Notes: a model not told the origin generated them from the letters alone. Shown: positions 15,159 to 50,783, counted from the stretch's first letter. The stretch is 51,002 nucleotides of DNA from Eubacteriales bacterium (GCA_045590615.1 JAZNRH010000087.1:1-51002), one strand, 5' to 3'. Program-made: numbers and translations.

Positions 15159-15209
15159 GTATAATATTTTTACAGCTTTTTGGAACAATATATCAAAAGG
15201 TGGGATTGT

Positions 15210-15575: not shown

Positions 15576-15913
15576 CCTTTTTGATTGCTATGCTCACAGG
15601 TCTTGGAGTTGGCTCGGGTGGGCTTTATATATTTTACCTGACTCTTATTAAAAATTTGCCTCAAAGAGAGGCACAGGGTATAAATCTGCTCTTTTTTATT
15701 ACTGCAACGCTCGCTGCGGCGATTGTGAATTTAATAAAGAAAAGAGTTTTCTTTCCGGCTTTTTTAGTGGTTTTTCCGTTTGGTATTATCGGGGCTTTGC
15801 TTGGCTGTCGGCTTGCCTCCTCGATTGATACAAAGCTTTTATCGATTATGTTTGGCTCTCTGATTGCTATCGTCGGCGCAGTCGGCTTTATAAAGCTGTT
15901 GAAAAAGCGTTGA
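15572..15913 (+). CDS. TauE/SafE (TSUP) family membrane protein, half-size unit 2
   Basis: GLGVGSGG and QREAQGINLLFF motifs. ATGA overlap with the upstream gene. Confidence 0.8.
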   Translation: MTFLIAMLTGLGVGSGGLYIFYLTLIKNLPQREAQGINLLFFITATLAAAIVNLIKKRVFFPAFLVVFPFGIIGALLGCRLASSIDTKLLSIMFGSLIAIVGAVGFIKLLKKR

Positions 15914-22340: not shown

Positions 22341-22550
22341 ATCATATAGGAAATTGCTTTGAATTAACCTCGCCGTTTTGCCTTGCTTTAGTTTAGAAAA
22401 AGTAAGGATAGGCGAGATTCGCCAGCGACGGCTCGTCGCTTTTTTATCATATAGGAAATTGCTTTGCATTAACCTCGCCGTTTTGCCTTGCTTTAATTTA
22501 GAATAAGTAAGGATAGGCGAGATTTGCCAGTGGCGGCTCGCCACTTTTTT
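22341..22550 (+). repeat. Tandem duplication of a 105-bp structured element
   Basis: Units start at 22341 and 22446 and differ by 8 substitutions. Each unit holds several hairpins and ends in a 7-bp hairpin plus T-run. Confidence 0.92.
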
Positions 22551-34256: not shown

Positions 34257-34332
<76 letters not shown>

Positions 34333-34372: not shown

Positions 34373-34557
34373 GCGTTTATGGGGATTTTCCTTACGGTGT
34401 ATTTCCTTACATTCGGGTGGCTTCTTCCAAATGATTGTATACCGAAATGTGAACACGGTTGTTGCAGGATTAAATCACTTCAAAATTCAAATTTAACTCT
34501 CTGTTTTCGAAAAGCACCGTGTTTCATATACAAATTCAATACACAGGAGGAGCAATT

Positions 34558-35352
34558 ATGAGTGAAGCAAAAGTAATAGCAATCGCAAATCAAAAAGGCG
34601 GAGTTGCCAAAACAACTACAACTTTAAATTTAGGAGTCGGTCTTGTAAGACTCGGTAAAAAGGTTTTACTTGTCGATGCCGATCCTCAAGGAAGCCTTAC
34701 CATAAGTCTCGGAATCAAGAATCCGGATACGATAAAGAATACCCTTTCGAAGCTTATGCAAAACGCAATAGAGAAAAACTATTTCGTCCCGCACTTCTTT
34801 ACTTTCAAGCACGATGAAGGTGTAGATTTCATTCCCGCCAACATAGAACTTTCAGGTATCGAAATCAGCCTTGTAGGTCTGAAAGAACGTGAACTCGTAC
34901 TTAAGAAAAGCCTACAGGAATATCTGCCACTTTATGACTACATAATCATCGATTGCATGCCGTCACTTGGACTTATGACAATCAATGCACTTGCGGCCGC
35001 CGATAGTGTAATCATTCCGACACAGGCAAATTACCTGTCTGCCAAAGGTCTTGATTTATTGATGTACTCCATAGCAAAAACAAAGCAGGACATTAATCCT
35101 GAGCTTAGGATAGACGGAATACTTCTCACAATGGTGGATAAGCGAACAAGGAATGCACGGATGATAGACAATTTACTGCATGAGACATTCAGCAGCGGAT
35201 TACACTTATTCTTTTCTGAAATTCCGGCTTCAGTCACTGTCCAGGAGTGCAGTAATGAAGGAAAAAGCATTTTTACACGTGGACAACACAACAAGGTTGC
35301 TATAGCATACGATAGATTCTCAAGGGAGGTTGAAGGAATTGAAAGGAAATAG
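34558..35352 (+). CDS. parA: ParA/Soj family ATPase
   Basis: NQKGGVAKTTT, DADPQG, IIDCMPSLG. AGGAGG RBS. Confidence 0.92.
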   Translation: MSEAKVIAIANQKGGVAKTTTTLNLGVGLVRLGKKVLLVDADPQGSLTISLGIKNPDTIKNTLSKLMQNAIEKNYFVPHFFTFKHDEGVDFIPANIELSGIEISLVGLKERELVLKKSLQEYLPLYDYIIIDCMPSLGLMTINALAAADSVIIPTQANYLSAKGLDLLMYSIAKTKQDINPELRIDGILLTMVDKRTRNARMIDNLLHETFSSGLHLFFSEIPASVTVQECSNEGKSIFTRGQHNKVAIAYDRFSREVEGIERK

Positions 35353-36265
35353 AATTGATTTAGGGCTTACGGGATACAACGAACTGTTTTCAAGTGAGTC
35401 AAGCCGTAACGAATCAAAACGCCCCAAGATAATGGACATACCTCTATCGGAAATCGACGATGCTCCAAATCATCCGTTTAAGGTTCGTATTGATGAGGAT
35501 ATGTACAAGCTTGTCGAGAGCATCAAGGAGAACGGCGTTATAGAACCTGCCATACTTCGAAAGAAAGCAGACGGCAGATATGAAATTGTGGCAGGACACA
35601 GACGAAGAAAAGCCTGTGAGCTTGCCGAGATTGAAACTCTCAAATCCGTAATTCTTGATATTGGCTATGATGAAGCTGTTGTTATGATGGTAGAATCAAA
35701 CTTTCAGCGTACAAAGTTACTTCCAAGCGAGCTAGCCTTTTCATACAAGATGAGAATGGATGCTCTAAAACGGCAAGGTAAACGCACCGATATAACTTCG
35801 TCTCCAATGGAGACAAAGTTGAGAAGTGATGAAAAACTTGCTGAGATGAGTGGCAATAGCCGAGCACAAATTCAGCGATATATTCGCCTCACTAACCTTA
35901 TACCTGCTCTGCTTGATATGGTAGACGAAGAAAAAATAGGTTTTCGTCCTGCAGTTGAACTGTCGTATCTCTCGGGAGCAGAACAAGAGCTTCTTCTCGA
36001 TACTATAAAATGTGAGGAAGCAACCCCTTCTCTTGCACAAGCACTTAAAATGAAGCAGTTTTCAAAAGACGGCAAACTTGATGCAGATAAGATCCTTGAA
36101 ATTATGTGCGAAAGAAAACCAAATCAGGCAGAAAAGATTACATTCAAAGCCGAGTCTTTAAGAAAATATATCCCCCGTAGTATCATCTCCCCTAAAGAAA
36201 CCGAGGAATACATTCTTAAGGCATTGGCACATTACAGAGACTTTTTGAAAGAAGGAAACCAATGA
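35330..36265 (+). CDS. parB: ParB/RepB/Spo0J family partition protein
   Basis: HPFKV, YEIVAGHRR, RQGKRTD, IQRYIRLT. TTG start with GGGAGG RBS. Confidence 0.9.
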   Translation: MKELKGNRIDLGLTGYNELFSSESSRNESKRPKIMDIPLSEIDDAPNHPFKVRIDEDMYKLVESIKENGVIEPAILRKKADGRYEIVAGHRRRKACELAEIETLKSVILDIGYDEAVVMMVESNFQRTKLLPSELAFSYKMRMDALKRQGKRTDITSSPMETKLRSDEKLAEMSGNSRAQIQRYIRLTNLIPALLDMVDEEKIGFRPAVELSYLSGAEQELLLDTIKCEEATPSLAQALKMKQFSKDGKLDADKILEIMCERKPNQAEKITFKAESLRKYIPRSIISPKETEEYILKALAHYRDFLKEGNQ

Positions 36266-36654
36266 GGAAACTATACGCATACAAAAAAGAAAACACTTGT
36301 CCAGTTCAGAAATTCATTGACAACTTGAATGGCAAGATAAAAGCAAAGTTTATGTTTCAGCTAAGCTACATAATGGATGAAAGAAACGGCTTTGTCGAGC
36401 CTTATATCAAGCACTTTTCAATGGAAAGATACAGACAGATGTATGAAATAAGAGTAAAGGCAGCGGAAAGAATGATGAGAATCATCTTTTACGAAAAGAA
36501 CGGTGAAATAATCCTTCTTCATGCCTTTTATAAACACGACCGCAAGGACACCGAAAAAGCACTCGAAACGGCACACAAAATTTTAGAAAACATTACCGAC
36601 AAAAACGGCAATGTAAAAGAAGAATACAGAAAGGAGTTGGTACTGTGTGATTAA
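36262..36654 (+). CDS. RelE/ParE superfamily (Gp49-like) toxin-fold protein
   Basis: PVQKFID, EPYIKH, YEIRV, RIIFY and ILLHAFYK pattern. Confidence 0.75.
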   Translation: MRKLYAYKKENTCPVQKFIDNLNGKIKAKFMFQLSYIMDERNGFVEPYIKHFSMERYRQMYEIRVKAAERMMRIIFYEKNGEIILLHAFYKHDRKDTEKALETAHKILENITDKNGNVKEEYRKELVLCD

Positions 36655-37657
36655 CGTAGTAATATGGCTCGGCAAAATAAAGTACAGTGCAGATCTTGCT
36701 ATAGTTTTCGCAAGAAACAACATCCGCATTGTTGATGAGAACTTCGAAAACACCGATGATTTTATCGACAGATTTGATTCTCTTGATGCAAATGTTGATG
36801 TACTTGTAATTGCTGATGCTTTGCTTTTAGGTACGGACAGAAAGAAACTGTTTCAGCGCATTCGACAGATTGAGCCTAATATCAGAATCGTCATTGTTTT
36901 TCCGGGTTATCGCAACCAGTATATCGAAGACCAGATATCCGAATATAAAAATGTTTACGGTATAACCGACATTATTTATGAAGGTTCAAGACTTGATGAG
37001 GAATACTTCGCCGACGTTATCAAGAAAGGCTACATATACGATTACGAGGTTAATGTATACGATGAACCCGGTGAGGTTACAAAGCCTATACTCCCCGAAA
37101 AGAAATGTATTTCGATTGGTATTCTCGGCTTTACTCACGGATGCGGTGTTACAAACGAGGTCATAAATACCGCAGGATATATTTCCATTACCCAGAATGG
37201 AAACGTCAAGGCAATTGACTTTTCGGGAACAGGAAATCTCAGATTTGCAAAGACAAAAGGCGTTACATATATCGTTCATTCTGACATCGACATTGCAAGG
37301 ATAAGAAAGACAAGTAAGGCTGTGGTATACGATTTTGGAACACCATTCAACATATCCTCTAAGGGAAAGCTTCTGTCATATAACGAGTGCTATGACGAAG
37401 AGAAGATGAAGCTTTTCAGAGAGTGTGACCTCAAGGTGTGCAAGTGCTTTTCGGACAGTTGGCACATAGGAAAAATGAAATATTTCTTGAACGATAAGTT
37501 CTGGAGCCGGGAGATAGACGATAGTTACATAATATTACTCGATAAAGTCCCGAGAGACTCGCAAAACTTGAGTTCGAGGATAAATATATGCGGCAGAAAT
37601 GATACGGTTCTTACTGACCGGCTTGCGGTTCTTTTCTCCGTAAAGGATGGTGAATAG
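36647..37657 (+). CDS. Hypothetical protein: receiver-like domain plus degenerate P-loop domain
   Basis: N-terminal DVLVIAD...PNIRIVIV resembles a receiver fold. SIGILGFTHGCGVT resembles a MinD/CpaE-type P-loop lacking the Walker A lysine. Confidence 0.6.
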   Translation: MINVVIWLGKIKYSADLAIVFARNNIRIVDENFENTDDFIDRFDSLDANVDVLVIADALLLGTDRKKLFQRIRQIEPNIRIVIVFPGYRNQYIEDQISEYKNVYGITDIIYEGSRLDEEYFADVIKKGYIYDYEVNVYDEPGEVTKPILPEKKCISIGILGFTHGCGVTNEVINTAGYISITQNGNVKAIDFSGTGNLRFAKTKGVTYIVHSDIDIARIRKTSKAVVYDFGTPFNISSKGKLLSYNECYDEEKMKLFRECDLKVCKCFSDSWHIGKMKYFLNDKFWSREIDDSYIILLDKVPRDSQNLSSRINICGRNDTVLTDRLAVLFSVKDGE

Positions 37658-37717: not shown

Positions 37718-38623
37718 ATGAAATCAGTAAAATCATTCGCAGTAATTCTTATGGCATTACTTATGCTGACAGTAAACGTTCTTGCAAGCGATGTCCTCGT
37801 ACCTAACGAGGTTATCATGGGTACCGCCGACAACTACAAAATAATTGAGAAGGTGTATGTTCTTCCAAAAGGTAGTGATGAAAGCCTTATTCCCAAAGAA
37901 GCCTTTACAGAAAGTGATGTAGAGTATGTCTTTGAAGAAATGAAGGTTGTAGACAATTCTGAAGAAGATACTAAGGAATACGTGGAAAATATTAATTACC
38001 ATACCTCAACAAATGACGCAGAGGCGGTAATTGCACTTTTCTCACCTACTATCGAAGTATCAACCGAAGACGGTTACATCGGAGTTCTCGCATTCGATCA
38101 TTCTACCCTTGAGCTTACCCCTGCAGGATATTCCAGCCGTAAGTTCACGGTAACGGAAGAAAGAAGCTATCCCAACCTTGCATCAGCAGATACTTCTCTT
38201 GTACCCAAGACTATTGACAAGGATGGCACAACTCTTACTCTTGCCAATATCGAATGGGTAACGGCAGCAGATGAAACCATAAGCGGTACAGACGTTGCAA
38301 TAAGATACACTGCGAATGCGATCTACACGGGAACAGAAACAAAGACCTATGTAAACGGATATACCGCAAGTGCCGATTACAAAGGAACAGTTACGAAAGT
38401 CATAAACGATACCGTTACATATACAGCGGTATTTAAGGAAAACAAGGAGACAAACGAGCCTATGATTGACATAGACAAAACAAATGATAAAAAGGATACT
38501 TCTGCAGAAAAGAAAGCAAAGACTGCAGGTATAGTAGCAGGTTCAGTTGCAGGTGCGGCAGCACTTGGTGCAGGCGGATATGCTATTTACAGACTTATCC
38601 GTAAAAAGAGAAAGGGATACTAA
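37718..38623 (+). CDS. Exported protein with C-terminal membrane anchor
   Basis: Signal peptide ending VLA-S, Thr/Tyr-rich body, Lys-rich linker, transmembrane helix, basic tail RKKRKGY. Confidence 0.8.
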   Translation: MKSVKSFAVILMALLMLTVNVLASDVLVPNEVIMGTADNYKIIEKVYVLPKGSDESLIPKEAFTESDVEYVFEEMKVVDNSEEDTKEYVENINYHTSTNDAEAVIALFSPTIEVSTEDGYIGVLAFDHSTLELTPAGYSSRKFTVTEERSYPNLASADTSLVPKTIDKDGTTLTLANIEWVTAADETISGTDVAIRYTANAIYTGTETKTYVNGYTASADYKGTVTKVINDTVTYTAVFKENKETNEPMIDIDKTNDKKDTSAEKKAKTAGIVAGSVAGAAALGAGGYAIYRLIRKKRKGY

Positions 38624-38624
38624 G

Positions 38625-39479
38625 ATGAAAAAGATAGTTTTATTTCTCTCTCTCGGACTTGTGTGCGTGCTTGCAATCCCCGCATTTGCTGCGGATTACA
38701 CGGTAGCACCGCCAACTCAGGCACTGTTCGGCACACCAACATCAGTAGACGTTGTTACGGTTGGTAACAATATTAATCGAACAGCGGTTGATATAAGTAA
38801 GAACAGCGCCCTTATTCCTCCCGCTTTCGGAAGTCATACAAGTAACCTTCGCGGAAGTGGCGAACCACTCACTCCCAATCTTGCATCCTACTACACCGAA
38901 ACACCGCAGGCTCCCGTATCGGTTAGCGGCATTACAGGTCAGCCGATGGTGACGGTTACAAGTACAGTTCCGAATTCATCCGTAACAAACGGTAATGGCG
39001 TGACTATTATCCCGGGTAACATTGATACGGATATTTACGAGGATTACTACACCTACGATGCATTCACGGAAGTTGATGATGATATGTACTACACAGGTGG
39101 ATATATCGCAAAGTTGTCTATTCCCGACATTGACCTTTCTGTAAAGGTTTATGAGGGTACGACAAATTCGGTACTTTCCAAAGGTGTAGGACACTTCAAG
39201 GAAACTTCAATCTGGGACGGCAATGTGTGCCTTGCTTCTCATAACAGAGGTACGGGAGCATACTTCTCGGATATTCATGAGCTTGACCTTGGTGCTACTA
39301 TAAAACTCACGACAAAGCTTGGCACACGAAAGTATGAGGTGTATAGCATTGAAAAAATCTCAGTAGATGATACCTCAGACCTTCAGAACACAAGCGACAA
39401 CATCATCACCCTTATCACCTGCGTCAAGAACCAGTCGGACTACTACAGATGGTGCGTTAAGGCTGAACAGGTGGATTAA
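38625..39479 (+). CDS. Sortase (class D-like)
   Basis: LSIP, GVGH, LASHNRG (His), TLITCV (Cys), YYRWCV (Arg). The N-terminus ends in AFA-AD. Confidence 0.88.
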   Translation: MKKIVLFLSLGLVCVLAIPAFAADYTVAPPTQALFGTPTSVDVVTVGNNINRTAVDISKNSALIPPAFGSHTSNLRGSGEPLTPNLASYYTETPQAPVSVSGITGQPMVTVTSTVPNSSVTNGNGVTIIPGNIDTDIYEDYYTYDAFTEVDDDMYYTGGYIAKLSIPDIDLSVKVYEGTTNSVLSKGVGHFKETSIWDGNVCLASHNRGTGAYFSDIHELDLGATIKLTTKLGTRKYEVYSIEKISVDDTSDLQNTSDNIITLITCVKNQSDYYRWCVKAEQVD

Positions 39480-39530
39480 GAAGCAATCAGCGTCAAACAC
39501 AATTTTAACCAAACTAAAGGAGAAATCAAA

Positions 39531-40616
39531 ATGAGGAAGTACACATATTTCTTGTTAGGTTTACTCTGCGGTGCGGTATTTTTCAGCGGAACGGCAGTAA
39601 TGGCAAATTCCGGCGTTCTTGCACAGATAACATCACAAATATTTTTCTTAAACGGAGAACAAACGGAGCTTTTTGCATATAACATAAACGGCAATAACTA
39701 CGTGAAGCTTCGTGATGCAGCCGCCTTGTTTGGCGCTGATATCGAATATATCGAGGAAACGAACAGCGTACATATGGAGATTCCAAAGAAAGAGGAAATC
39801 CCCGAAGAAACACCTGTAGTAACTCCCGATATAGTCATTGACGGCACATCGTCTTCAAAAGAGGATTTTTCGGCAAATGCTAATCAAGGAATATTCAATG
39901 ACATCTACACAAAGGAAGCATACAACACTATGCGGCAGACGGTAGCAGATACAAAAGCAATCGTTGTCGGTGCAGATAAGGATGGATATAACCCGTCATA
40001 CAGCTATGCTCACTATGTAGATACTGAGTTCACTTTCACAACTCCCGGCAAGACCGATACTGCAATGAAATCGGTAGCGAATGTTCTTTCGGGATATTAC
40101 ACCTACAGCTTCGGTGCAGAACCCACTGTAAAGAATCTGTATGAGTACCCCGGTTACCGAATCCTAAAGGTACAGGTCAACCCCAAGTATGAAAGTGCGA
40201 ATAAGGCAACGGATGAGTTTGTCGGAAGTATAGCAACCCTTTCCGAAAAGGAAACGGTTAAAGCAATAGCGACATACATCGCTGACCGCATAGTTTACAA
40301 GGATGAAAATGTGGCAGGAATAAATGATGTGTTTACATCAGATACTCCCGTAAACGGCATCTGCGGAACTTATGCAAATGCTTTTATCTATCTCTGTCAA
40401 AGAGTCGATATTCCCTGCGTAACCATCAAGGATGCAACTCACGCTTGGAATGAAGTCTACATTGACGGCAGATGGCAGATAATCGACGTAAGCTATTATG
40501 ATGTAGCACGAACCGATGAATCACTCTTTACTACTAACTATCCAAGAATTGACACAACCAAAGAAAAAACGGAATTTGCCAAAGAACTGCTCGTACCCGG
40601 AAGTACGGCAGATTAA
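39531..40616 (+). CDS. Exported transglutaminase-like protein with an N-terminal copper-amine-oxidase-N-like domain
   Basis: Signal peptide; AYNINGNNYVKLRD; catalytic triad motifs GICGTYANAF, HAWNEV and IIDVS. Confidence 0.78.
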   Translation: MRKYTYFLLGLLCGAVFFSGTAVMANSGVLAQITSQIFFLNGEQTELFAYNINGNNYVKLRDAAALFGADIEYIEETNSVHMEIPKKEEIPEETPVVTPDIVIDGTSSSKEDFSANANQGIFNDIYTKEAYNTMRQTVADTKAIVVGADKDGYNPSYSYAHYVDTEFTFTTPGKTDTAMKSVANVLSGYYTYSFGAEPTVKNLYEYPGYRILKVQVNPKYESANKATDEFVGSIATLSEKETVKAIATYIADRIVYKDENVAGINDVFTSDTPVNGICGTYANAFIYLCQRVDIPCVTIKDATHAWNEVYIDGRWQIIDVSYYDVARTDESLFTTNYPRIDTTKEKTEFAKELLVPGSTAD

Positions 40617-40631
40617 CCTAATATAAACTTT

Positions 40632-40663
40632 AAGCAGACTGAAAAAAACGGTCTGCTTTTTTT
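40632..40663 (+). terminator. Intrinsic terminator or attenuator before the adhesin gene
   Basis: AAGCAGACTG-AAAAAAA-CGGTCTGCTT followed by a T-run. Confidence 0.7.
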
Positions 40664-40686
40664 ATTACAAGAAGGAGGACATAAAA

Positions 40687-43600
40687 ATGTCTACAGCAAA
40701 AAGTTCAGGCAAGCAGATAATCGCTCTGTTGCTTGCCCTTATTACTCTCCTCTCCGTCATTCCCATAATGCCCGTAAGTGCAGAAACATTAAGTGACGGA
40801 AAAGCACAGACAGTAACAATTAAGCTTAACGAAACCCACTATATCCTCGAAACTGTTGGCGGCACAAAGCTTCAGGGACAGTCGTGGACATATACAAGTG
40901 ATACAGGTATTCAGGGACCTGCATACTGTATCAACTGGGGACTTGCAAAACCCTCGGAAACAAAGAAGATAACCATTACGGGTAAATACACCACAACTCC
41001 TCAGACGATAGGTGCATTTGCCAACGGTTATCCTCAGAGAAGCCTTGAGGATTTTATCTCCATTAACAAGGTAGATAATCCTCTTATTGCAAATCTTACC
41101 CGTGAGGAGTACGTAGCAGCAACACAGGCGGCAGTATGGACTACTCTCGGTCAGCTCAGAATCGAAGGAACACAATGGGACAGCGGACGTGATACACTTC
41201 TCATTCCCACAGACGATCCTTCAGCAATAAGAGCATATGAAGCACTTAAAATTATCCTTTACAATGCATCCTTCTGGACTAAGCCCTTAAATGCAGGTAT
41301 GCATATACGACTTGGAAGAACCGAGGCAGGAAACGTTCTTAATATCGAAGACGCAAACGGTCTTATAGGTGCTGAACAGAACGGCATGTACGGCATTGAA
41401 AAGGAAACAATCGGTGGTGTTGAATACTACACACGCACCTTTGTTGCTTCTTCCGCAACCTCAACCTACAAGAATAACTACTCCATAAATCTTCACCTTG
41501 CAAACGCTCCCACAGGCACAATAGTTACAAATCTCGATAACGAACAGCTGGTATCCTGGACTGCTTCGGGTAAGACTTATTGGACAGTTCCCACTCCTGA
41601 AAACGAAGTAACAAACATGAATGAAAACGGAATGGAATATGCCGGTGATTTCAAGGTATGTATTCCCGTGAGAAATACACCTAAAAGCGGAAACATTACA
41701 TTCCAGGCAAACGCAACAATTACACAGTTCAACATATACTTTGCCAATAACCAGACAGACACAGAACAGAGCTTTATAATTGCAGACCCGATGTATGCTC
41801 CTATGTCCTGCACAGGTACAATGAAATGGGATACAGTTACATCTCCCTACGGCAGACTTGTTGTAAACAAGGTTGACGGTATGGGAAATCCCTTACAGGG
41901 TGCAATATTCAAGCTGACAGGCTCTAATGGCAAAACATACGAAGGAACAAGCGACAGCACAGGTCAGATTGTATGGGAATATCTTGATCCTACAATTACC
42001 TATACTCTTTCCGAAACACAGGCTCCCGCGGGATATATCAAGGCTGAAGATGTAACCGTCAACGTTCTTGCAGGAACTACAACAACTGTGAGCGTTAAGA
42101 ACCTCAGCGAAAGAATACTTCGCATACGCAAGGTTGATGCACAAAACGGGAATCCGCTTCTCGGTGCTTCTTTCAGAATCGAGCAGACAGACGGCAGTTA
42201 CAAGACCGACCTTTACACAGGTCATAACGGATGTATTGAGCTTCAGGGCGATGCACTTCCTTACGGTACATATAAGGCGTATGAGCTTAAAGCACCCGTA
42301 GGATACGAAAAGAGCAATGACGTACAGACTTTCAAATGGGATGGCAAGAGCGATATTACTCTCACCTTTGAAAATGTGAGAACTCCCTCGTTTGTACTCA
42401 TTAAGAAAGATAAGGACACAAATATACCTCTTGAAGATGTATCCTTCAAGGTTTACAGAGACGGCAGACTTGTAACAACGGTAACAACCAATTCCGCAGG
42501 TTATGCCTATGTGTCTGAACTTTCCGAAGGCTACTATGAGGTCGAAGAGGTTGCTGCACCTGCTGGATATATTCTTGATACAGAAAGACACGGAATATAT
42601 ATCAACCCTTACGATCCCGCAGTGGAAAACGATCCTATTCTTGTACTTACAAACTCAAAGAAGCCTACTCTCATAATTGAGAAGCTTGACACTCAGACCT
42701 TAAAGCCCATAAAGAATACAAGATTTGCAGTATACAAGGACACAAAGCTTATCGGCAACTACACCACCGATGCTGACGGACTTGTAGAGCTTACAAACCT
42801 TGATCCCGGCACATATACGGTCAAGGAAACAAGAACATCAAGCGGATATGTGCTTCAGGATGCACCGCAGTCTATTGAACTTGAGCCCGGCAAAACTGCA
42901 ACACTTACATTCTTCAATCCCACAAAGCCCGGCATCAGCATCAAGAAGATTGATGCTGACACAGGTGATGAACTCTATGGAGCAACCTTTAAGATTGAAG
43001 GCGTGAATGTAACCTATCTTAACGAGCTTACAACAGACAGAGACGGTGAAATCACACTTTCAGACCTTAATCCCGGTGTATATTCGGTTTCCGAAATATC
43101 AGCTCCCGAAGGTTATGTAAGAAATACCGAAGTAAAGGTCTTTGAAGCAACTGAAGACGGTAATGTTCAGCTTGTGTTTAAGAACTACAGAAAACCGTCA
43201 CTTAAAATAACTAAGGTTGACTCGGATAACGGTGATACCCTTTATGGTGCAGCCTTCCGTATAGCAAAGGTTGGCGACGCTACACGCTACTATGACAGAG
43301 TTACCGACAGAAACGGCGTTATTGAAATTGACGGTCTTGACGTTGGCATTTACACTGTACAGGAAATCTCTGCTCCCGAAGGCTATCAGCTTAATGATAC
43401 CCTTTATCATGTTGAGCTTTTCGAGGGCAAAGACAGCACACTTACTGTTGAAAACACCATAAAGCCAAGCCTTACAATCATAAAGCTTGACAGTAAGACA
43501 AACGAGCCACTTTCGGGTGCTGTATTTGAAGTGTACCGTGATGCAAGACTTGTTGGCACTTACACTACAAATATAAACGGCGAAATCAATCTTCGTGACC

Positions 43601-46600
43601 TTAAAACAGGCACATATCTTGTAAAGGAAGTAGCGGTTGATAACGAGCATATCGTAAACTCCACTCCCCAGCAGATAGAGATTGACGAAAACAGCGGTGA
43701 TACCGCAATGCTTGTTTTCCTCAATGATCAGAAGCCGTATATAAGACTTGTAAAGCTTGACAGCACAACTCTTGAACCCCTTTCCGATGTAGTCTTTGAA
43801 GTTAAGAAAACCGACGGCAGCTTCACAAAGGAATTTACAACAGACAGAAACGGCGAAATCTCACTCAGCGAGCTTGAAGTCGGAACATACGTTGTAAAAG
43901 AAACAAAGGCACCTGACGGATATATTGCAGATAATTCTTCAAGAACAGTTGAAGTAAAAGGCAACGAATCCGCAACCTTTGTCTTTACAAACACAGTAAA
44001 GCCAAGCATCAAGATAACAAAGATTGATAAGCACACTGGTGAAAAGCTTGAGGGTGCTGTAGTTCGTATTGTAAATCTTTCGGGTAACGATGTATGGGAG
44101 AAAACTACCGATAAAAACGGCGAAATACTCCTTTCCGAAATTGACGAAGGTGTATATACCGTTCAGGAAATCACTGCTCCCGAGGGCTATCTGTTAAACA
44201 GTGAGCTTTATCACCTTACAGCATCGGCAGGCAAAACAAACGAGCTTACAATCGAGAACTCAAGAAAGCCGAGCCTGACTGTCAAGAAGTATGACAGCCT
44301 TACAGGTGAATTTATGGCAGGTACTTCCTTTGAGGTGTACCTCGATACCACTCTCATCGGCACATATACAACAAACGAGAACGGTATCATTGAACTGTTT
44401 GACCTTAAAACAGGTACATACACAGTCAAGGAAATTGCCACAGACGATGACCATATCGTAAACTCCACACCTCAGTCCATTGAGGTTAAGGAAGACAGCC
44501 TTGACACAGCAGTTCTCGTGTTCCTTAACGACCAGAAGCCGTATATGCGTCTTGTGAAGCTCGACTCACAGACAATGAAGCCTCTTGTAAACGCTACATT
44601 CAAGTTCAAGCAGGTCGGCGGCACTTACGAAAAGGAATACACCACAGACCAGAACGGCGAGATAAAGCTTGACAGACTTGAAGAAGGTACATATACAGTT
44701 ACCGAGACAAAAGCACCTGAAGGATACCTCATTGACAATGCAGAACGCACAGTCAAGGTCGAGGGTAACGAATATGCAACATTTGTGTTCACCAATACAA
44801 AGAAGCCGTCAATAAGAGTTATTAAGTACGATAAGTACAATGACAAATACCTGTCGGGAGCAACATTCCGTATCGCAAAGATTGAAGACGGAAGCAATTA
44901 CCTTGACAGAATTACAGACATTGACGGTAATATCGTAATCGACAATCTTGAACCCGGCGTTTACTCGGTTAAGGAGATTAAAGCACCTACAAACTATGTA
45001 CTCAACGAAACAGAATACCACGTTGAACTATTTGCAGGTAAGGAATCTCAGGTAGTTGTTCTCAACGAAGAAAAGCCCAGCCTTAAGATAGTAAAGACCG
45101 ATGCAGAAACTGGCAAACCAATCGCAGGTGTTGGCTTCCTTGTAAGACTTGCGGATGGCAGTACCGAAAACACGGTAGTTACAGACCAAAACGGCGAATC
45201 ACTTCTTTCTCACCTTAACCCCGGTATTTACGAGGTTATTGAAAAGAGTGTTCCCAACGATTATCTGCTTGACTCTGAACCCAAGCTTGTAACTCTTGTT
45301 CCAAATAGAACATCGGTTATAAGATTTGAAAATTATCAGAAGCCATCCCTTACAGTAAACAAGATTGACAGCATTACAAAGGATCCCCTTAAAAATGCGA
45401 AGTTCAGCGTAGTTTACGCAAGCAATAATACCTTTACAGGTGAAGTAAACCATCTCGGCACATTTACCACCGATGAGAACGGACAGTTTAAGATGTATAA
45501 TCTCAACGACGGCTGGTATAAGATAACCGAAACTGCAGCTCCCGACGGATATGTGCTTTCAAACGAGGCACAGGAAATCTACATCAAGGGCGGCGAAGAT
45601 AAGGAAATCACCTTTGAGAACGTTCCGCTTTCAGGACTTGTTATCAAGAAGGTTGATGCCGATACAGGAAAGGTTCTTCAGGGAGCAAAGTTCCAAGTTA
45701 GATACCTCTCCGGAACAAGCGGCAGCGGCGGTACTGTTATCGGAGAGTATACAACTTCTGCAAACGGTACAATCGTTATCACAAGACTTGAAGCAGGTAC
45801 TTATGTAATCGAGGAAACAAAGGCTCCCGACGGTTATATAATAAGCGACGCTCCCGAAACTGTGTATATCACAGGCAAGGAACAGGATGTAATCACCGTT
45901 ACCTTTGAAAATGAAAAGGACGGCGGACTCATTATCCGTAAGCTTGACAGTATCACAAAACAGCCACTCTCCGGTGCAGAGTTTACAGTTACCACATCTG
46001 ACGGAAAATTTATCCCCACAGAAAACGGTGCAGTATCCTCTAACGGAATTTATACAACAGATGAATTGGGTCAGATACACATTACAAACATCGAAGCAGG
46101 CACAACGGTAGTTGTTACCGAAACCAAGGCTCCCGATGGATATGTAATCGACACTGTTTCAAAGACTGTTAAGATTGATGCAGATGATACGCAGACTCTT
46201 ACATTCTACAACAAGCCAAGCAGCGGACTTATCATTACAAAGCTTGATAAGGAAACCAAAGAACCTCTTTACGGAGCAGTATTTGAGATAACCGACAGCA
46301 CAGGTGCTGTTGTAGGAAATTCAAACGGCAGATATACAACAGATATTTACGGTAATATCAAAGTAAACGGACTTACTCCCGGAACTTATGTTATTACTGA
46401 AGTTGAAGCCCCTGCAGGATATGCTATCAGCGGTGAGCCTCAGACAATAAATGTAGTATCAGGTAAGATCCATAACCTCACATTCTACAACTCTCCCGAA
46501 GGCGGGCTTATTATTACAAAGCTTGATAAGGCTACAGGTGAGCCGCTTTACGGCGCTGTATTCAAGATTACAAACAGCGAAGGAACTGTTGTAGGTAACG

Positions 46601-48162
46601 CAAACGGCAGATATACCACAAACAGAAACGGTATTATTCACTTGACAGGTCTTGCTCCCGACACCTATGTTGTAACAGAGGTAACTGCTCCCGATGGATA
46701 CACTCTTGACGGTGCACCTCAGACAGTTAAGGTAAAGTCAGGACAGACACACGAGCTTACATTCCTTAATGAAGCTCTCGGCGGTATCAGAATTACAAAG
46801 CTTGACGAAGAAACAAGACAGCCTATCAAGGGTGTTAAGTTTGAAGTTGAGTACATGAACGGCAAGAGAATCGGTACATACACTACAAACGCAAGCGGTG
46901 TTATCAACATTGATGATCTTCCTAACGGTTGGTACACGATTGTTGAAACCAAAGCGGCAGACGATTACATTCTTGATGCAGAACCCCACGATGTTGAAGT
47001 AACAGACGGTGAAATTACCCGTGTTACCATTACAAACAGAAAGAACTCCTCCTTCCTCATTCATAAGGTGGATTCCACAACAGGTAAAGGTATAAGCGGT
47101 GTAACATTCCTTATCTCAGATCGCTACGGCAGACCTCTTGCACAGTACGTTTCCGATCAGAACGGATATGTATATACCGACAATAACGAATTTGAAGACG
47201 GTAAGTATTACATCCGTGAGATTGCAGTTCCTAACGGCTATGTGCTTGATAACGAGGTTAAGACCTTCTACGTTGAATACGGGCACACCTCATCTATCAC
47301 TTGGTACAACACTCCCATTCAGGCACAGATTCAGGTGGTAAAGAAATCTGCAGACGATAACCCCATTAACGGACTTCCCGCAGGCTCACTTCTTGAAGGT
47401 GCTGTATTTGAAATCTACGACAAGGCAGGAAATATCGTTGACACCATTAAGACAGACAAGAACGGCAGAGCTGCATCAAAGCCTCTTCCTCTCGGTCTTT
47501 ATACAATGCGTGAGACGGTAGCTCCTACTTATTACACACCCAATGGAACTCTTATGACAGCACACCTTGAGTTTAACGGTCAGATTATGACCTTCGAGGT
47601 GCTTAATAAGTCGGTATCTGTTGGTGTATCAGTAACTAAATACGGCTACAACGAAGTAATGCCCAATAACCCCATTGTTTACAGCTTCAAGAATATCGCA
47701 AACACTTCAAGCGTATCTCTTGACAGCTTCTACTTCCGTGATACACTTCCTTCGGCTATCCGTGCCGAAAAGATAGTGACAGGTACATTCAATCAGAATC
47801 TGTCCTACAAAATAGTGTATCTTACCAACCTTTCTAACGGTGAATACCGCACAATAAACGACAACCTTTCTACAAGCAAGAACTATGTAATTGATGTATC
47901 AAACATCGCTCTCGGTCTTGCGGATAACGAGTACATCACAGAAATTATGTATGTATTCGGAAGCGTCAGAGCAGGTTTTGCACAGGTTGAAACTCCTTAC
48001 CTTTATGCACGTTCCGTTAAGGGACTTGCAAATGGTTCCAGCTTTGTAAATACTGCTGATGTCGGCGGTGTATACAACGGTCAGTGGATAACAACCATTT
48101 CCCGTTTCGTTACAAAGGTTTACAGCTATACCTATATCGAAATGCCGAAAACCGGCTATTAA
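40687..48162 (+). CDS. Giant surface adhesin: thioester (TED/TQXA) domain plus about 21 CnaB/SpaA isopeptide repeats
   Basis: Signal peptide VSA-E; AYCI and TQAAVW thioester-domain motifs; repeated K-x-D...GA.F...T...G...L..G.Y...E..AP.GY...F.N units; ends in MPKTGY-stop. Confidence 0.92.
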   Translation: MSTAKSSGKQIIALLLALITLLSVIPIMPVSAETLSDGKAQTVTIKLNETHYILETVGGTKLQGQSWTYTSDTGIQGPAYCINWGLAKPSETKKITITGKYTTTPQTIGAFANGYPQRSLEDFISINKVDNPLIANLTREEYVAATQAAVWTTLGQLRIEGTQWDSGRDTLLIPTDDPSAIRAYEALKIILYNASFWTKPLNAGMHIRLGRTEAGNVLNIEDANGLIGAEQNGMYGIEKETIGGVEYYTRTFVASSATSTYKNNYSINLHLANAPTGTIVTNLDNEQLVSWTASGKTYWTVPTPENEVTNMNENGMEYAGDFKVCIPVRNTPKSGNITFQANATITQFNIYFANNQTDTEQSFIIADPMYAPMSCTGTMKWDTVTSPYGRLVVNKVDGMGNPLQGAIFKLTGSNGKTYEGTSDSTGQIVWEYLDPTITYTLSETQAPAGYIKAEDVTVNVLAGTTTTVSVKNLSERILRIRKVDAQNGNPLLGASFRIEQTDGSYKTDLYTGHNGCIELQGDALPYGTYKAYELKAPVGYEKSNDVQTFKWDGKSDITLTFENVRTPSFVLIKKDKDTNIPLEDVSFKVYRDGRLVTTVTTNSAGYAYVSELSEGYYEVEEVAAPAGYILDTERHGIYINPYDPAVENDPILVLTNSKKPTLIIEKLDTQTLKPIKNTRFAVYKDTKLIGNYTTDADGLVELTNLDPGTYTVKETRTSSGYVLQDAPQSIELEPGKTATLTFFNPTKPGISIKKIDADTGDELYGATFKIEGVNVTYLNELTTDRDGEITLSDLNPGVYSVSEISAPEGYVRNTEVKVFEATEDGNVQLVFKNYRKPSLKITKVDSDNGDTLYGAAFRIAKVGDATRYYDRVTDRNGVIEIDGLDVGIYTVQEISAPEGYQLNDTLYHVELFEGKDSTLTVENTIKPSLTIIKLDSKTNEPLSGAVFEVYRDARLVGTYTTNINGEINLRDLKTGTYLVKEVAVDNEHIVNSTPQQIEIDENSGDTAMLVFLNDQKPYIRLVKLDSTTLEPLSDVVFEVKKTDGSFTKEFTTDRNGEISLSELEVGTYVVKETKAPDGYIADNSSRTVEVKGNESATFVFTNTVKPSIKITKIDKHTGEKLEGAVVRIVNLSGNDVWEKTTDKNGEILLSEIDEGVYTVQEITAPEGYLLNSELYHLTASAGKTNELTIENSRKPSLTVKKYDSLTGEFMAGTSFEVYLDTTLIGTYTTNENGIIELFDLKTGTYTVKEIATDDDHIVNSTPQSIEVKEDSLDTAVLVFLNDQKPYMRLVKLDSQTMKPLVNATFKFKQVGGTYEKEYTTDQNGEIKLDRLEEGTYTVTETKAPEGYLIDNAERTVKVEGNEYATFVFTNTKKPSIRVIKYDKYNDKYLSGATFRIAKIEDGSNYLDRITDIDGNIVIDNLEPGVYSVKEIKAPTNYVLNETEYHVELFAGKESQVVVLNEEKPSLKIVKTDAETGKPIAGVGFLVRLADGSTENTVVTDQNGESLLSHLNPGIYEVIEKSVPNDYLLDSEPKLVTLVPNRTSVIRFENYQKPSLTVNKIDSITKDPLKNAKFSVVYASNNTFTGEVNHLGTFTTDENGQFKMYNLNDGWYKITETAAPDGYVLSNEAQEIYIKGGEDKEITFENVPLSGLVIKKVDADTGKVLQGAKFQVRYLSGTSGSGGTVIGEYTTSANGTIVITRLEAGTYVIEETKAPDGYIISDAPETVYITGKEQDVITVTFENEKDGGLIIRKLDSITKQPLSGAEFTVTTSDGKFIPTENGAVSSNGIYTTDELGQIHITNIEAGTTVVVTETKAPDGYVIDTVSKTVKIDADDTQTLTFYNKPSSGLIITKLDKETKEPLYGAVFEITDSTGAVVGNSNGRYTTDIYGNIKVNGLTPGTYVITEVEAPAGYAISGEPQTINVVSGKIHNLTFYNSPEGGLIITKLDKATGEPLYGAVFKITNSEGTVVGNANGRYTTNRNGIIHLTGLAPDTYVVTEVTAPDGYTLDGAPQTVKVKSGQTHELTFLNEALGGIRITKLDEETRQPIKGVKFEVEYMNGKRIGTYTTNASGVINIDDLPNGWYTIVETKAADDYILDAEPHDVEVTDGEITRVTITNRKNSSFLIHKVDSTTGKGISGVTFLISDRYGRPLAQYVSDQNGYVYTDNNEFEDGKYYIREIAVPNGYVLDNEVKTFYVEYGHTSSITWYNTPIQAQIQVVKKSADDNPINGLPAGSLLEGAVFEIYDKAGNIVDTIKTDKNGRAASKPLPLGLYTMRETVAPTYYTPNGTLMTAHLEFNGQIMTFEVLNKSVSVGVSVTKYGYNEVMPNNPIVYSFKNIANTSSVSLDSFYFRDTLPSAIRAEKIVTGTFNQNLSYKIVYLTNLSNGEYRTINDNLSTSKNYVIDVSNIALGLADNEYITEIMYVFGSVRAGFAQVETPYLYARSVKGLANGSSFVNTADVGGVYNGQWITTISRFVTKVYSYTYIEMPKTGY

Positions 48163-48174
48163 ACTCCATTTCCC

Positions 48175-48200
48175 GTGGGCTGTCGTAAAAGGCAGCCCAC
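48175..48200 (+). terminator. Stem-loop after the adhesin gene
   Basis: GTGGGCTGTC-GTAAAA-GGCAGCCCAC. No clear U-tract. Confidence 0.55.
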
Positions 48201-48222: not shown

Positions 48223-48579
48223 ATGCTTTATATGAAAAACAAAATTATGAAGTTCTGTTGTCAGACGCTACCGTTCATTGTGGCACTTGTACCGCTGTTT
48301 GCAATAAATGTATTTGCCGTAGATGATATGTGGGTAGTTGCCGACAGAATTATCGTTGACGTCTACAATCATATTGCAGGAATAAGTACCGTCCTTGCGG
48401 CTCTTATGACTACCGTGTGCGTTGTAGGTATGAAGCTTTCAAACAATCAGCAAAAGGTAGACCAGAGTGTTGACTGGCTCAAGCGTATCTGGATTGCTTG
48501 GGCTATTATCAACGGCATTGGTGCATTCCTTGCTTATGTAAGACCGCTTCTCGACGGACTTGCGACTATTAAGCCGTAA
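48223..48579 (+). CDS. VirB2/TrbC-like small membrane protein (conjugal pilin-like)
   Basis: Signal-like N-terminus ending VFA, two hydrophobic helices flanking WLKRI. Lies upstream of a VirB6-like gene. Confidence 0.6.
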   Translation: MLYMKNKIMKFCCQTLPFIVALVPLFAINVFAVDDMWVVADRIIVDVYNHIAGISTVLAALMTTVCVVGMKLSNNQQKVDQSVDWLKRIWIAWAIINGIGAFLAYVRPLLDGLATIKP

Positions 48580-48620: not shown

Positions 48621-50783
48621 TTGCTTGAACCCATTATGAAGGGGCTGATAGAGTGGATATACGGTCTTATCGAAGATATGGCAGACTATGTGTTCGGCGA
48701 TATTATCGACGTTATGACGATGGATATGGACTATTTCCGAAAGGCAGCTCCTATCGTAAATGACATTTCCGAAATCATTCTCGCTCTCGGATGGGCACTT
48801 TTGCTTGGAAATCTTGTATTCCAACTATTAAAAAGCATAATGTCGGGAGCAGGCTTTGAGGGTGAAGATCCGAAGCTTCTTTTTATGCGTACCTTTGCTT
48901 TCAGCTTTCTCCTCCTTGCATCTCCTCAGATATGCGAAATGTGTACCAAGATGACAGGAACAGTCGTTGCATACCTTAATATCCCGAGAAGCTTTGCTTT
49001 CTCTCCACCGTCAAGCCTGATGTTCTCGGCTGCAGGCGGTGTAAGCTGGCTTATAGCGATAATCGTAAGTATTATTCTCATTATTCAACTCATAAAGCTG
49101 TTCTTTGATATAGGCGAGAGATATGTCATAGCCTGTGTTCTCACATTTATGGCACCTCTCGCTTTTGCTATGGGCGGAAGTAAGAATACCAACGACATAT
49201 TCAAGGGCTGGTGCAGAATGTACGGCTCTATGAACCTTATGCTCATTATGAATATCATCTTCTTAAAGCTCATAATGAACGCAATGGTTAATATGTGGGC
49301 GTCAAATATTATTGTATGGCTGGTATTCGTAATGGCACTCACAAGAGTAGCAAGAAAGATCGATGCACATATAGCGAAAATCGGACTTAACCCTGCACAG
49401 ACAAGCAACAGCGTAGGTGTAAGATTCCCCGGCGGTATGACACTTGTTGTGGTGAGAACTCTTGCATCCCTTGTGGGCAAGAATATGGGCGGTATGAAGG
49501 GTGGCTCCGGCGGTGGTAACCGTTCAGGTGGCAGCAGTAATCATAACCACAACCACGGCGGTGGAAGCCCAAGCGGTGGAGGCTCAAGACCTCGTAACAC
49601 TAATCCTCCTCCGTCAAATAACGGCGGTAATGCGAATCCCGGTGATGCGAACGTAAATGTATCTGTAAACAATCAAAGCAGAACTACTAAGATTAATACT
49701 CCTGCAGGCAATACTGCAAACAGACAAGCTAACAATGCAACAAATAACAGCAGATACACAAATAATAACAGCTCAAATTCCGATAGCAGAAGCAATTCGA
49801 GAACAGACAATTCGAGTCGTGAAACTTCCGGCAGAAATACTCCTTCTACACCTGCAAGGAATAATAAGCCTACAGGCAACGGCGGTAATATCACTGTCAA
49901 TCAGACGCAGGTACAGAATGCCGCAAGAAATGCTGCATCAATTCCGGGTGCAAGACCTAATACAGCTCATACAACCGACAGAAGCAGTTCATCTTCACAC
50001 GACGGCGGCAGAGATACTCATTCCTCAAATCAGCAAAGGACACAGAATACGTCCCGTCCTCCGCTGTCAAGGAATACATCGGGTGGAAGGACAAATATAC
50101 CTGCACCTCCCGTATCTTCTCAGCCTCATACAAATCAGTCCGTTGTTAATAACAACAGTGGTGTTCAAGGTGGTGTAACTGTTAATGCTCCCGCTGTTAA
50201 GACAGGCTCAAAGGGTGTAACAGTTCCTGTTATGCCTCAGACTCAAGGTATGAGCAGAACATCAGGAAGCCTTAGAACTTCCGACAACAGGAGCGTTAAT
50301 AACAACGCTGTTGGTAATTCCTCTGTAAACAGCGATTCGGATGTACATACTTCCAATGTATCCTCTGATAACGGAAGAACAGACAGAAGAAGCACAGTAA
50401 TCGCAGGTGGAAACAGAACTTCAAGCAATGTTTCGGGTGGTAACACTGGTGTTAATGTAAACAATACTACTTCCGTTCGTGGAGGCGGTACAGTTGTCAA
50501 CAACTCAGGTGTATCGTATTCAGAACACGGTGGTGATTCTCATTATGTTGCAAACAACAATATGAGTACCACTGAAAGACGAGTAAATCCCGAATACAAA
50601 TTTGGAAGATACGATCCTGCGGCAGCAAACCGTAAAGGAAAGAAAAACTACTACACCAAAGACACAGAACCCTTAAAGCGTAAGGGTGAATACAAGAGAG
50701 GTGAAGCGGACAATGGCAGAGCAGCAAAAAAGCACAGGTCAGAAGGCGGCTCGCGGAGCTCAGGTCGTAGGCGGAATAGTTAA
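48621..50783 (+). CDS. VirB6/TrbL-like polytopic membrane protein with a long low-complexity tail
   Basis: About 290-aa multi-helix domain (ERYVI...APLAFAMGGSKNTNDIFKGWCRMYGSM) followed by about 430 aa rich in N, S, G, T and R. Confidence 0.7.
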   Translation: MLEPIMKGLIEWIYGLIEDMADYVFGDIIDVMTMDMDYFRKAAPIVNDISEIILALGWALLLGNLVFQLLKSIMSGAGFEGEDPKLLFMRTFAFSFLLLASPQICEMCTKMTGTVVAYLNIPRSFAFSPPSSLMFSAAGGVSWLIAIIVSIILIIQLIKLFFDIGERYVIACVLTFMAPLAFAMGGSKNTNDIFKGWCRMYGSMNLMLIMNIIFLKLIMNAMVNMWASNIIVWLVFVMALTRVARKIDAHIAKIGLNPAQTSNSVGVRFPGGMTLVVVRTLASLVGKNMGGMKGGSGGGNRSGGSSNHNHNHGGGSPSGGGSRPRNTNPPPSNNGGNANPGDANVNVSVNNQSRTTKINTPAGNTANRQANNATNNSRYTNNNSSNSDSRSNSRTDNSSRETSGRNTPSTPARNNKPTGNGGNITVNQTQVQNAARNAASIPGARPNTAHTTDRSSSSSHDGGRDTHSSNQQRTQNTSRPPLSRNTSGGRTNIPAPPVSSQPHTNQSVVNNNSGVQGGVTVNAPAVKTGSKGVTVPVMPQTQGMSRTSGSLRTSDNRSVNNNAVGNSSVNSDSDVHTSNVSSDNGRTDRRSTVIAGGNRTSSNVSGGNTGVNVNNTTSVRGGGTVVNNSGVSYSEHGGDSHYVANNNMSTTERRVNPEYKFGRYDPAAANRKGKKNYYTKDTEPLKRKGEYKRGEADNGRAAKKHRSEGGSRSSGRRRNS

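Follow-up and report, generated by a model that had tools for sequence, protein, structure and literature searches.

The stretch of DNA analysed here, 51,002 nt from a Eubacteriales bacterium (GCA_045590615.1 JAZNRH010000087.1:1-51002; hereafter the window), carries part of a conjugative element on which a 2491-residue adhesin ends in an LPXTG-type pentapeptide followed by one aromatic residue, accompanied by a sortase of its own with a signal-peptide-type N-terminus. Judged from sequence, this combination of a tail-less sortase signal and a dedicated sortase is real, widespread and conserved. A textbook sorting signal consists of the pentapeptide, a hydrophobic segment and a basic tail, and genome screens for sortase substrates demand all three. 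We propose, with a rough probability of 0.55, that the element encodes a dedicated sortase pathway which works with a minimal sorting signal.

Adhesin and sortase belong to a group of four genes, the other two of which encode a membrane protein, here called P1, and a transglutaminase-like protein. As far as alignments and gene order tell, the four constitute a conserved surface module of Clostridial conjugative elements, and this module sits just upstream of type IV secretion genes, at the head of the secretion operon. The module comprises the following features:

37718-38623, + strand: P1, 301 aa, type I membrane protein of no known family (translation; alignments of 14 and 34 sequences)
38625-39479, + strand: sortase, 284 aa (PF04203, E 2.4e-24)
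39531-40616, + strand: secreted transglutaminase-like protein, 361 aa (Pfam Transglut_core, PF01841, E 1.5e-11, 45 bits vs a cut-off of 23)
40632-40658, + strand: terminator-like hairpin with T-run, between the transglutaminase-like and adhesin genes (consensus scan)
40687-48162, + strand: adhesin, 2491 aa (translation, Pfam SpaA and TED, motif positions)
48175-48200, + strand: 10-bp GC-rich hairpin, 13 bases 3' of the adhesin stop, then AACCAUUUU

The tail-less end of the adhesin

In line with the original prediction, which had been made from the window's sequence, translation and a hydrophobicity scan agree that the adhesin ends in ...YIEMPKTGY-stop (MPKTGY, 48142-48159; stop codon, 48160-48162), with neither membrane helix nor basic tail. 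The pentapeptide MPKTG comprises residues 2486-2490 and is the one part of a canonical sorting signal that is present, whereas the hydrophobic segment and the positively charged tail are both missing and a single Tyr is all that follows the Gly. The sole hydrophobic 19-mer of the protein is the N-terminal signal at residues 11-29 (Kyte-Doolittle scan). No frame beyond the stop codon continues into a membrane tail; instead there follow the hairpin at 48175-48200 (fold centroid -20.9 kcal/mol, z -3.77; absent from a strict terminator scan) and then the next gene. When open reading frames (ORFs) ending in PxTG plus 0-3 residues were looked for, the adhesin was the only one in the window. A one-genome-per-species scan with the sortase alignment yielded 24 related loci; nine of these hold one such ORF, in each case their adhesin, and the other 15 hold none.

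The conservation of this end was assessed in a close and in a diverse set of homologues. A search of 5.8 billion proteins with adhesin residues 2150-2491 gave 8000 scored candidates, 7952 of which match at E<=1e-3. The 120 best of these 7952 were taken as the closest homologues (1577-4146 aa, 46-99% identical over the query), and every one of them ends in [LMI]PxTG[YF]-stop (120/120; Y in 118, F in 2). For the diverse set, an exhaustive HMMER search with the last 260 adhesin residues against 1.84 billion representatives (50% clustering) returned 4928 matches at E<=1e-3. Part of the 7952 and of the 4928 matches arises through the repeat region of the adhesin. Among the best 150 of the 4928 representatives, a local phmmer search with the C-terminal domain alone, the motif being left out, detected this domain in 111, which end as follows:

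PxTG, then 1-17 residues without a hydrophobic stretch: 98; exactly one residue follows PxTG in 90 of these (Y 69, F 9, W 4, N 2, H 2, S 2, K 1, A 1)
No PxTG after the domain: 7
Domain cut short (fragments): 6
Hydrophobic tail: 0

The remaining 39 of the 150 representatives match via the SpaA repeat only, and many of them have ordinary tails composed of LPxTG, a hydrophobic segment and basic residues. Canonical tails are confined, within the best 150 representatives, to SpaA-repeat matches that lack the C-terminal domain, and the tail-less signal thus characterises the family with this C-terminal domain. Since the motif is kept in 120/120 close and 98/111 diverse homologues, it does not occur by chance, and this degree of conservation indicates that the tail-less signal is under purifying selection. 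The original prediction had allowed for a copy that is simply truncated; with a membrane tail in 0/111 and 0/120 homologues that have the same C-terminal domain, that explanation falls. Truncation, frameshift and assembly artefact alike are ruled out by the conserved C-termini and by the hairpin and next gene found 3' of the stop, in the window as well as in nine loci.

At its opposite end the adhesin has the thioester tip that had been predicted for it. The N-terminus matches Pfam TED (E 3.9e-8, 34.1 bits vs a cut-off of 22) and contains the signature residues Cys81 in YCINWG (40927-40929) and Gln147 in TQAAVW (41125-41127). Thioester Cys, the Gln of TQxA(I/V)W and a stalk of Ig-like repeats together are the characteristics of TIE/thioester adhesins. 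The stalk is built of 21 SpaA/CnaB-type repeats (Pfam SpaA, prealbumin-like fold) with a period of ~89-90 residues; both the thioester bond and isopeptide bonds within the repeats are predicted from the respective signatures. Between stalk and motif lies the family-specific C-terminal domain of ~160 aa (residues 2326-2485; 47662-48141), which has no Pfam family. Its neighbours in the ESM Atlas are clusters in which DUF7507 (56% of members), DUF11 (12%) and AgI/II C-terminal domains occur; we treat these as leads only. The adhesin gene has hairpins on both sides (40632-40658 and 48175-48200) and may therefore be transcribed or attenuated independently of both the P1-sortase-transglutaminase genes and the secretion genes.

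The sortase, its partner proteins and their synteny

The sortase matches superfamily models well above their cut-offs (PF04203, 85.9 bits vs 26.6; TIGR01076, 66.5 vs 39.35), and its family comprises 2141 matches, all of similar length. Its His/Cys/Arg triad is intact, as predicted: His190 (39192-39194), Cys266 in TLITC (39420-39422) and Arg275 (39447-39449) are invariant in 41 sequences. The enzyme stays under every NCBIfam class cut-off (class C 67.4/160, E 67.0/160, SrtD 62.9/140, D 60.6/165, GN 30.9/158), and no further sortase class model was returned at E<=0.01, the A, B and F models included. When the PDB was searched with a profile, no more than residues 152-283 could be aligned, with 4d70_A, a class D enzyme of Clostridium perfringens, as best match (E 5e-17), followed by class C and class A enzymes. 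Translation had originally been thought to start at a TTG at 38547; the true start is the ATG at 38625, one base past the P1 stop, and its ribosome-binding site GAAAGGGA lies within the last P1 codons.

From N- to C-terminus the sortase consists of a signal-peptide-type segment (residues 1-22), a conserved segment (39-86), a variable linker (87-146) and the catalytic domain (~147-284). The N-terminus reads MKK, 19 uncharged residues and AFA|AD. A site of the type (A/V)xA|A(D/E) is present in 88 of 93 homologues, counted among those with an exact 8-residue marker (27 of 120 were skipped for want of it), and the remaining five show similar sites outside the pattern used. A second hydrophobic segment was found neither in the window's sortase nor in any of the 93 homologues, and the C-terminal membrane helix of class C (pilus) sortases is missing as well, the protein ending in ...RWCVKAEQVD right after the last strand. 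The sortase N-terminus thus looks like a cleavable Sec signal peptide. In this respect the original prediction holds, but the Pro/Thr-rich linker that it placed directly behind the signal peptide does not: among 41 sequences there are 17 invariant columns in residues 39-86, 0 in 87-146 and 46 in 147-278. Because of these 17 columns, residues 39-86 have to be regarded as conserved like the enzyme core and not as a plain linker, which is restricted to 87-146. The conserved N-terminal segment has no Pfam family (even at E<=5) and no solved relative in the PDB search, and a local BLAST of the N-terminal region against the other locus proteins gave nothing meaningful (best E 0.007).

A tblastn search of 72,556 plasmids with the sortase gave 37 matching records, none of which covers >=80% of the query; the matches are only ~36%-identical catalytic domains of class A sortases. 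One class A plasmid sortase, from Enterococcus hirae, served as the single control: it has a 20-residue hydrophobic stretch, with no AxA-type site after it. On Listeria monocytogenes plasmid pLIS9, a sortase annotated as class A (569-1135) lies two genes upstream of a gene of the TrbC/VirB2 family. The annotated ORF has no N-terminal hydrophobic segment and may represent either another anchor-less mobile-element sortase or a mis-called start.

Behind its signal peptide P1 has an all-beta ectodomain of ~215 aa; a variable linker connects this to a Gly/Ala-rich transmembrane helix, and RLIRKKRKGY forms the cytoplasmic tail. It lacks an LPXTG motif and belongs to no Pfam or NCBIfam family; 308 homologues were found. 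The membrane anchor and the missing LPXTG motif correspond to what had been predicted, whereas the Lys-rich juxtamembrane segment also ascribed to P1 is not conserved among homologues. The most conserved stretch is a near-invariant loop, SYPNLxxADTSLVPK, and E147, R149, P152, N153, D158, T159, S160, V162, P163 and K164 (codon at 38207-38209) are invariant in 34 sequences. An AlphaFold2 model (mean pLDDT 78; 151 residues >=90) shows long hairpins and is confident for the ectodomain, the means of 10-residue blocks over residues 31-240 being 80-95 with one block at 69. A Foldseek search of this model against the PDB gave no match at E<=1e-3, with top TM scores of ~0.1. The names of the ESM Atlas clusters of P1, for instance 'cell wall anchor protein', are all automatic, which again is a lead only. 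A complex prediction of sortase residues 24-284 with P1 residues 25-250 gave no answer (score 0.00), which makes binding neither more nor less likely.

The last P1 codons, AAA GGA TAC TAA, end one base before the sortase ATG and contain its ribosome-binding site. As its bases double in this way, the conserved P1 end ...RKKRKGY is probably constrained, which would explain the 'GY'. A link between P1 and the adhesin through their shared 'GY' end was considered and rejected: the P1 end is cytoplasmic and overlaps the ribosome-binding site, so the likeness is probably coincidental.

The sortase gene had been described as directly adjacent to the adhesin gene, which overlooked the transglutaminase-like gene between them (39531-40616). 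Its product has an N-terminal hydrophobic signal, a small N-terminal domain and the core, in which Cys278, His304 and Asp319 are invariant in 10 sequences; a sequence match in the PDB is 9crn_A (E 4.8e-6). Protease, cross-linker and wall hydrolase are its candidate roles. The protein has a conserved C-terminus, ...FAKELLVPGST (40590-40616, with equivalents in loci L009-L021), to which the window's copy adds AD after KELLVPGST. Locus L019 reads SLVPGTNK at this place, and P1 has an invariant LVPK; the 'LVP' motifs might be recognition sites.

All 24 loci come from metagenome-assembled genomes of gut or rumen Clostridia (Oscillospiraceae, Ruminococcus, Acutalibacteraceae and 'Eubacteriales') and extend <=10 kb past the sortase. 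Their sortases are >=95% identical to that of the window in 8 of the 24 loci and 55-76% identical in the rest. The order ParA-ParB-Gp49-336aa-P1-sortase-transglutaminase-adhesin-small protein-TrbL is kept across the loci, and the co-occurrence that the original prediction had anticipated is found wherever there is room for it:

P1: 19/19 loci with >=300 nt upstream, plus a partial copy in L003
Transglutaminase-like gene: 23/24 loci
Adhesin thioester N-terminus: 20/20 loci with >=2 kb downstream
P1 stop to sortase start of -4 to +2 nt: 17/20 loci; 36, 36 and 103 nt in the others

The spacing between P1 stop and sortase start is 1 nt in the window, and the two genes are, as read from these junctions, translationally coupled. 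Locus L011 (10855-11928) has mid-adhesin CnaB repeats directly after the sortase, with no transglutaminase-like gene and no thioester domain; this arrangement is a deletion or misassembly. The transglutaminase core of L019 is divergent yet present. The last open stretch of the adhesin frame measures 255 codons in L010 and 744 in L019; being so short, these copies are taken to be interrupted or mis-sequenced.

The element around the module and comparable systems

Upstream and downstream of the module the following features belong to the same co-oriented run on the + strand, which begins directly 3' of a tRNA-Asn gene:

34257-34332, + strand: tRNA-Asn (GTT), likely left border of the inserted element (ARAGORN)
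34519-35352, + strand: ParA (Pfam AAA_31, E 3e-55), syntenic in related loci
35330-36265, + strand: ParB (Pfam ParB_N, E 2e-16), syntenic in related loci
36262-36654, + strand: Gp49/HigB-like protein (Pfam Gp49, E 1.4e-12), syntenic
36647-37657, + strand: conserved cytoplasmic 336-aa protein of no family (no Pfam or NCBIfam match), syntenic
48223-48579, + strand: small protein, 118 aa, with signal peptide and one further hydrophobic helix (translation, hydrophobicity scan)
48621-50783, + strand: TrbL/VirB6-like polytopic membrane protein, 720 aa (Pfam TrbL_4, E 9.5e-9, 35.5 bits vs a cut-off of 27)

Left of the tRNA gene (1-34200) the window holds only housekeeping genes as recognised by Pfam (PFL and its activase, NrdD, ThiI, Pth, a class II tRNA synthetase and sugar-nucleotide enzymes), while ParA starts ~190 bases to its right. 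As housekeeping genes lie on the left and element genes on the right, we place the left end of the element beside tRNA-Asn, which is likely its integration site. No integrase is visible at this end of the element within the window. ParA and ParB are the partition pair of the element. The gene of the Gp49/HigB-like protein overlaps ParB with its start and the gene of the 336-aa protein with its end. The 336-aa protein has no match at E<=0.01 (the best is a STAND NTPase model at 0.32) and its position is kept in most related loci; it might be a regulator or partner of the toxin-like Gp49/HigB-like protein.

The TrbL/VirB6-like gene is the first recognisable type IV secretion gene in the window. 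The operon of a distant TrbL relative on a Vescimonas plasmid also encodes a PrgI-family protein and a VirD4-like protein of the CD1115 family, and it is this operon together with the TrbL_4 match that identifies the genes as type IV secretion genes. By comparison with the Vescimonas operon the 118-aa protein, which has no family match in Pfam or NCBIfam, occupies the VirB2/TrbC-like slot, an assignment by position only. The window ends at 51002 inside the gene 3' of the TrbL-like gene, before VirB4, VirD4 or a relaxase could appear. Among the housekeeping genes, two adjacent overlapping ORFs at 15180-15913 (131 and 127 aa) each match the TauE/SafE profile in its C-terminal half alone and are either a half-size transporter pair or a rearranged gene, and a 645-aa ORF at 22549-24486 (- strand) has no Pfam family at E<=1e-5.

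With canonical sorting by class A/housekeeping enzymes the system shares the logic of (L/M/I)PxTG, the enzyme fold with its His-Cys-Arg triad and TLITC, and a large, Sec-signalled substrate of CnaB type. Unlike canonical substrates, the adhesin stops one residue past the Gly; unlike canonical enzymes, the sortase has a signal-peptide-type N-terminus with a conserved AxA and no other anchor, and reaches no NCBIfam class. Class C pilus assembly likewise employs a dedicated sortase encoded near its substrate and yields a fibre that is long, stabilised by covalent bonds and adhesive at its tip, and a protein Lys, here Lys164 of P1, could serve as acceptor. In contrast to pili, however, the fibre would be one 2491-aa polypeptide and no polymer, P1 has no pilin fold, and the sortase lacks the class C membrane helix and scores 67 bits against the class C cut-off of 160. 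We presume that SrtD/CnaC of pCW3 from C. perfringens forms a comparable surface module; among open-access papers and bioRxiv, no paper was found that treats srtD and cnaC together with conjugation. The same sources yielded no paper on a sorting signal that ends at LPXTG plus one aromatic residue, nor on a sortase lineage that has a signal peptide but lacks an anchor.

A close parallel is found on pLS20 of Bacillus subtilis, whose TIE adhesin p34 is required for mating in liquid medium (PMC8092201). It, too, is a thioester-domain and CnaB adhesin encoded in a Gram-positive conjugation operon and lacks the usual sorting signal. Unlike the window family, which keeps the pentapeptide and a dedicated sortase, pLS20 is described there as having no LPXTG motif and no plasmid sortase, with host sortases being dispensable. 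Element 023_CTn2 of C. difficile RT023 encodes a sortase and collagen-binding/CnaB 'substrates' with I/TPKTG motifs, listed beside parA and parB, and genes shared with gut microbiome bacteria are also reported (PMC6814731). IPKTGY ends occur in the window adhesin family too (4 of the 120 best homologues); in that paper, however, the 023_CTn2 proteins are treated as ordinary LPXTG substrates, the word 'transmembrane' does not appear in the text and no missing membrane segment is mentioned. These substrates may be related to the window adhesin family, which is a lead only. The PrgA/PrgB/PrgC module of pCF10 is another surface-adhesion module just upstream of type IV secretion genes, and the PrgB adhesin promotes mating-pair formation, as stated in a review on type IV secretion systems (PMC12857230). 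In contrast to the window adhesin, PrgB carries the complete LPXTG signal and makes use of the sortase of its host.

A possible pathway, its rivals and what it would mean

In the proposed pathway the adhesin would be exported by Sec and form a long rod of isopeptide-type CnaB/SpaA domains with the reactive thioester domain at its far N-terminal end. Its C-terminus would present [L/M/I]-P-x-T-G plus a single aromatic residue with a free carboxylate; the co-encoded sortase would cut between Thr2489 and Gly2490, thereby freeing Gly-Tyr, and join Thr2489 to an amine of the donor envelope. The base of the fibre would then be held on the donor, and its thioester tip may capture the recipient for mating, as we suppose by analogy with p34 of pLS20. 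Since a lasting membrane anchor is predicted for neither the adhesin nor the sortase, the means of keeping them at the site of reaction would have to be supplied in trans, possibly by the C-terminal domain of the adhesin together with P1. Among acceptors we favour an amine of the peptidoglycan stem peptide, at somewhat less than even odds: a covalently linked fibre would, by reasoning, be poorly served by the single Gly/Ala-rich helix of P1. The invariant Lys164 of P1 is our second and less probable choice. In outline the mechanism of the original prediction, a secreted sortase that ligates the released adhesin, is plausible; for its suggestion that the cell wall of the recipient may be the target there is no support, as nothing in the sequences points there.

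Several observations weigh against the proposed pathway. Action of the sortase on MPKTG is a prediction from sequence. In the canonical pathway both enzyme and substrate have to be retained at the membrane, and we know of no precedent for a system that does without both. The 19 uncharged residues at the sortase N-terminus are long enough for an uncleaved signal-anchor as in class A sortases, and the AlphaFold2 model of the sortase (pLDDT 41.6, 17 sequences) is too poor to suggest a role for the conserved N-terminal segment. The P1 ectodomain is not a pilin fold, given the Foldseek result, and the likeness of its VPK to the YPK motif of pilins is presumed. As 8 of the 24 loci hold near-identical copies of the element (>=95%), independent synteny evidence comes from ~14 loci only. 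Finally, inactivation of a plasmid sortase of pCS1-1 from C. sordellii barely affects transfer (PMC5770547).

Of the competing readings, one leaves the enzyme conventional and only the substrate unusual: the sortase would be kept at the membrane by an uncleaved signal-anchor and react with lipid II, the adhesin being captured co-translocationally or with the assistance of P1. Most sortases are anchored by such an N-terminal segment, the class A control from E. hirae has its 20-residue stretch and, in the window's sortase, MKK is followed by 19 uncharged residues. A signal-anchor, however, needs no conserved cleavage-type site, and the single class A control is without one, whereas 88/93 homologues keep a small-x-small|A(D/E) site with Pro, Ser or Gly before it that resembles the signal peptides of the co-encoded P1 and adhesin. 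We thus consider anchoring a possible but rather unlikely alternative. Doubtful in our view is a class C-like reaction in which Thr2489 is joined to the epsilon-amine of Lys164, so that P1 is the membrane-anchored base subunit and the fibre is tethered to the membrane and not linked to the wall. Here P1 has much to recommend it, being always present, encoded by a gene coupled to that of the sortase and the sole module protein with a lasting membrane anchor, with Lys164 inside its most conserved stretch (34 sequences); class C is, moreover, marginally the best NCBIfam class model (67.4 bits). Yet this score is far under the cut-off of 160 and inseparable from those of E (67.0) or D (60.6-62.9), P1 has no CnaA/CnaB pilin fold, its single Gly/Ala-rich helix would be a weak mechanical anchor for a covalently linked fibre, and the resemblance between VPK and the YPK pilin motif is, as noted, an assumption of ours.

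The motif might also not be a functional sortase site. The C-terminal domain would then hold the adhesin without a covalent bond, as has been suggested for pLS20, the end made of PxTG and an aromatic residue would serve another purpose, for instance as a docking site or a target of the transglutaminase-like enzyme, and the sortase would have another substrate. It fits this idea that the family-specific C-terminal domain always accompanies the tail-less end. The residues kept are, however, exactly those of the sortase pentapeptide (P, T and G near-invariant, L/M/I before P), no other ORF with such an end exists in the window or the loci, and the sortase gene is kept two genes upstream throughout, so we deem a motif without sortase function improbable. 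Even less credit is due to ligation away from the donor, in which the secreted sortase would join the adhesin base to the recipient wall or to other adhesins and thereby build a covalent bridge or mesh. The lack of a predicted lasting anchor on enzyme and substrate would permit this, and engineered sortase reactions are generally known to need just a short C-terminal tag; but no sequence feature indicates the recipient, the conserved P1 with its coupling to the sortase gene suggests an assembly site on the donor, and a free enzyme and a free 2491-aa substrate, diluted in the gut lumen, would presumably react inefficiently. The most far-reaching reading is a membrane-independent system in which the sortase, its signal cleaved, and the LPXTG-aromatic-COOH substrate are both free of the membrane and transpeptidation takes place in the wall or outside the cell, organised by P1 and the C-terminal domain. 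We regard this reading as unlikely. If true, it would overturn the rule that sorting requires a membrane-retention signal, and ligation in trans to mature peptidoglycan, P1, a surface component of the secretion system or even the recipient cell would become possible; with the thioester tip this would amount to an end-to-end covalent mating tether.

A large family of giant adhesins has retained just the pentapeptide and one aromatic residue and is invisible to screens that demand the three-part sorting signal. Such tail-less adhesins would show that membrane retention of a sortase substrate is dispensable or can be supplied in trans, and the naturally tail-less pair of sortase and substrate could serve as a ligation tool. 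Integrative conjugative elements of gut and rumen Clostridia carry the module, which may for this reason bear on the spread of genes among strictly anaerobic commensals.

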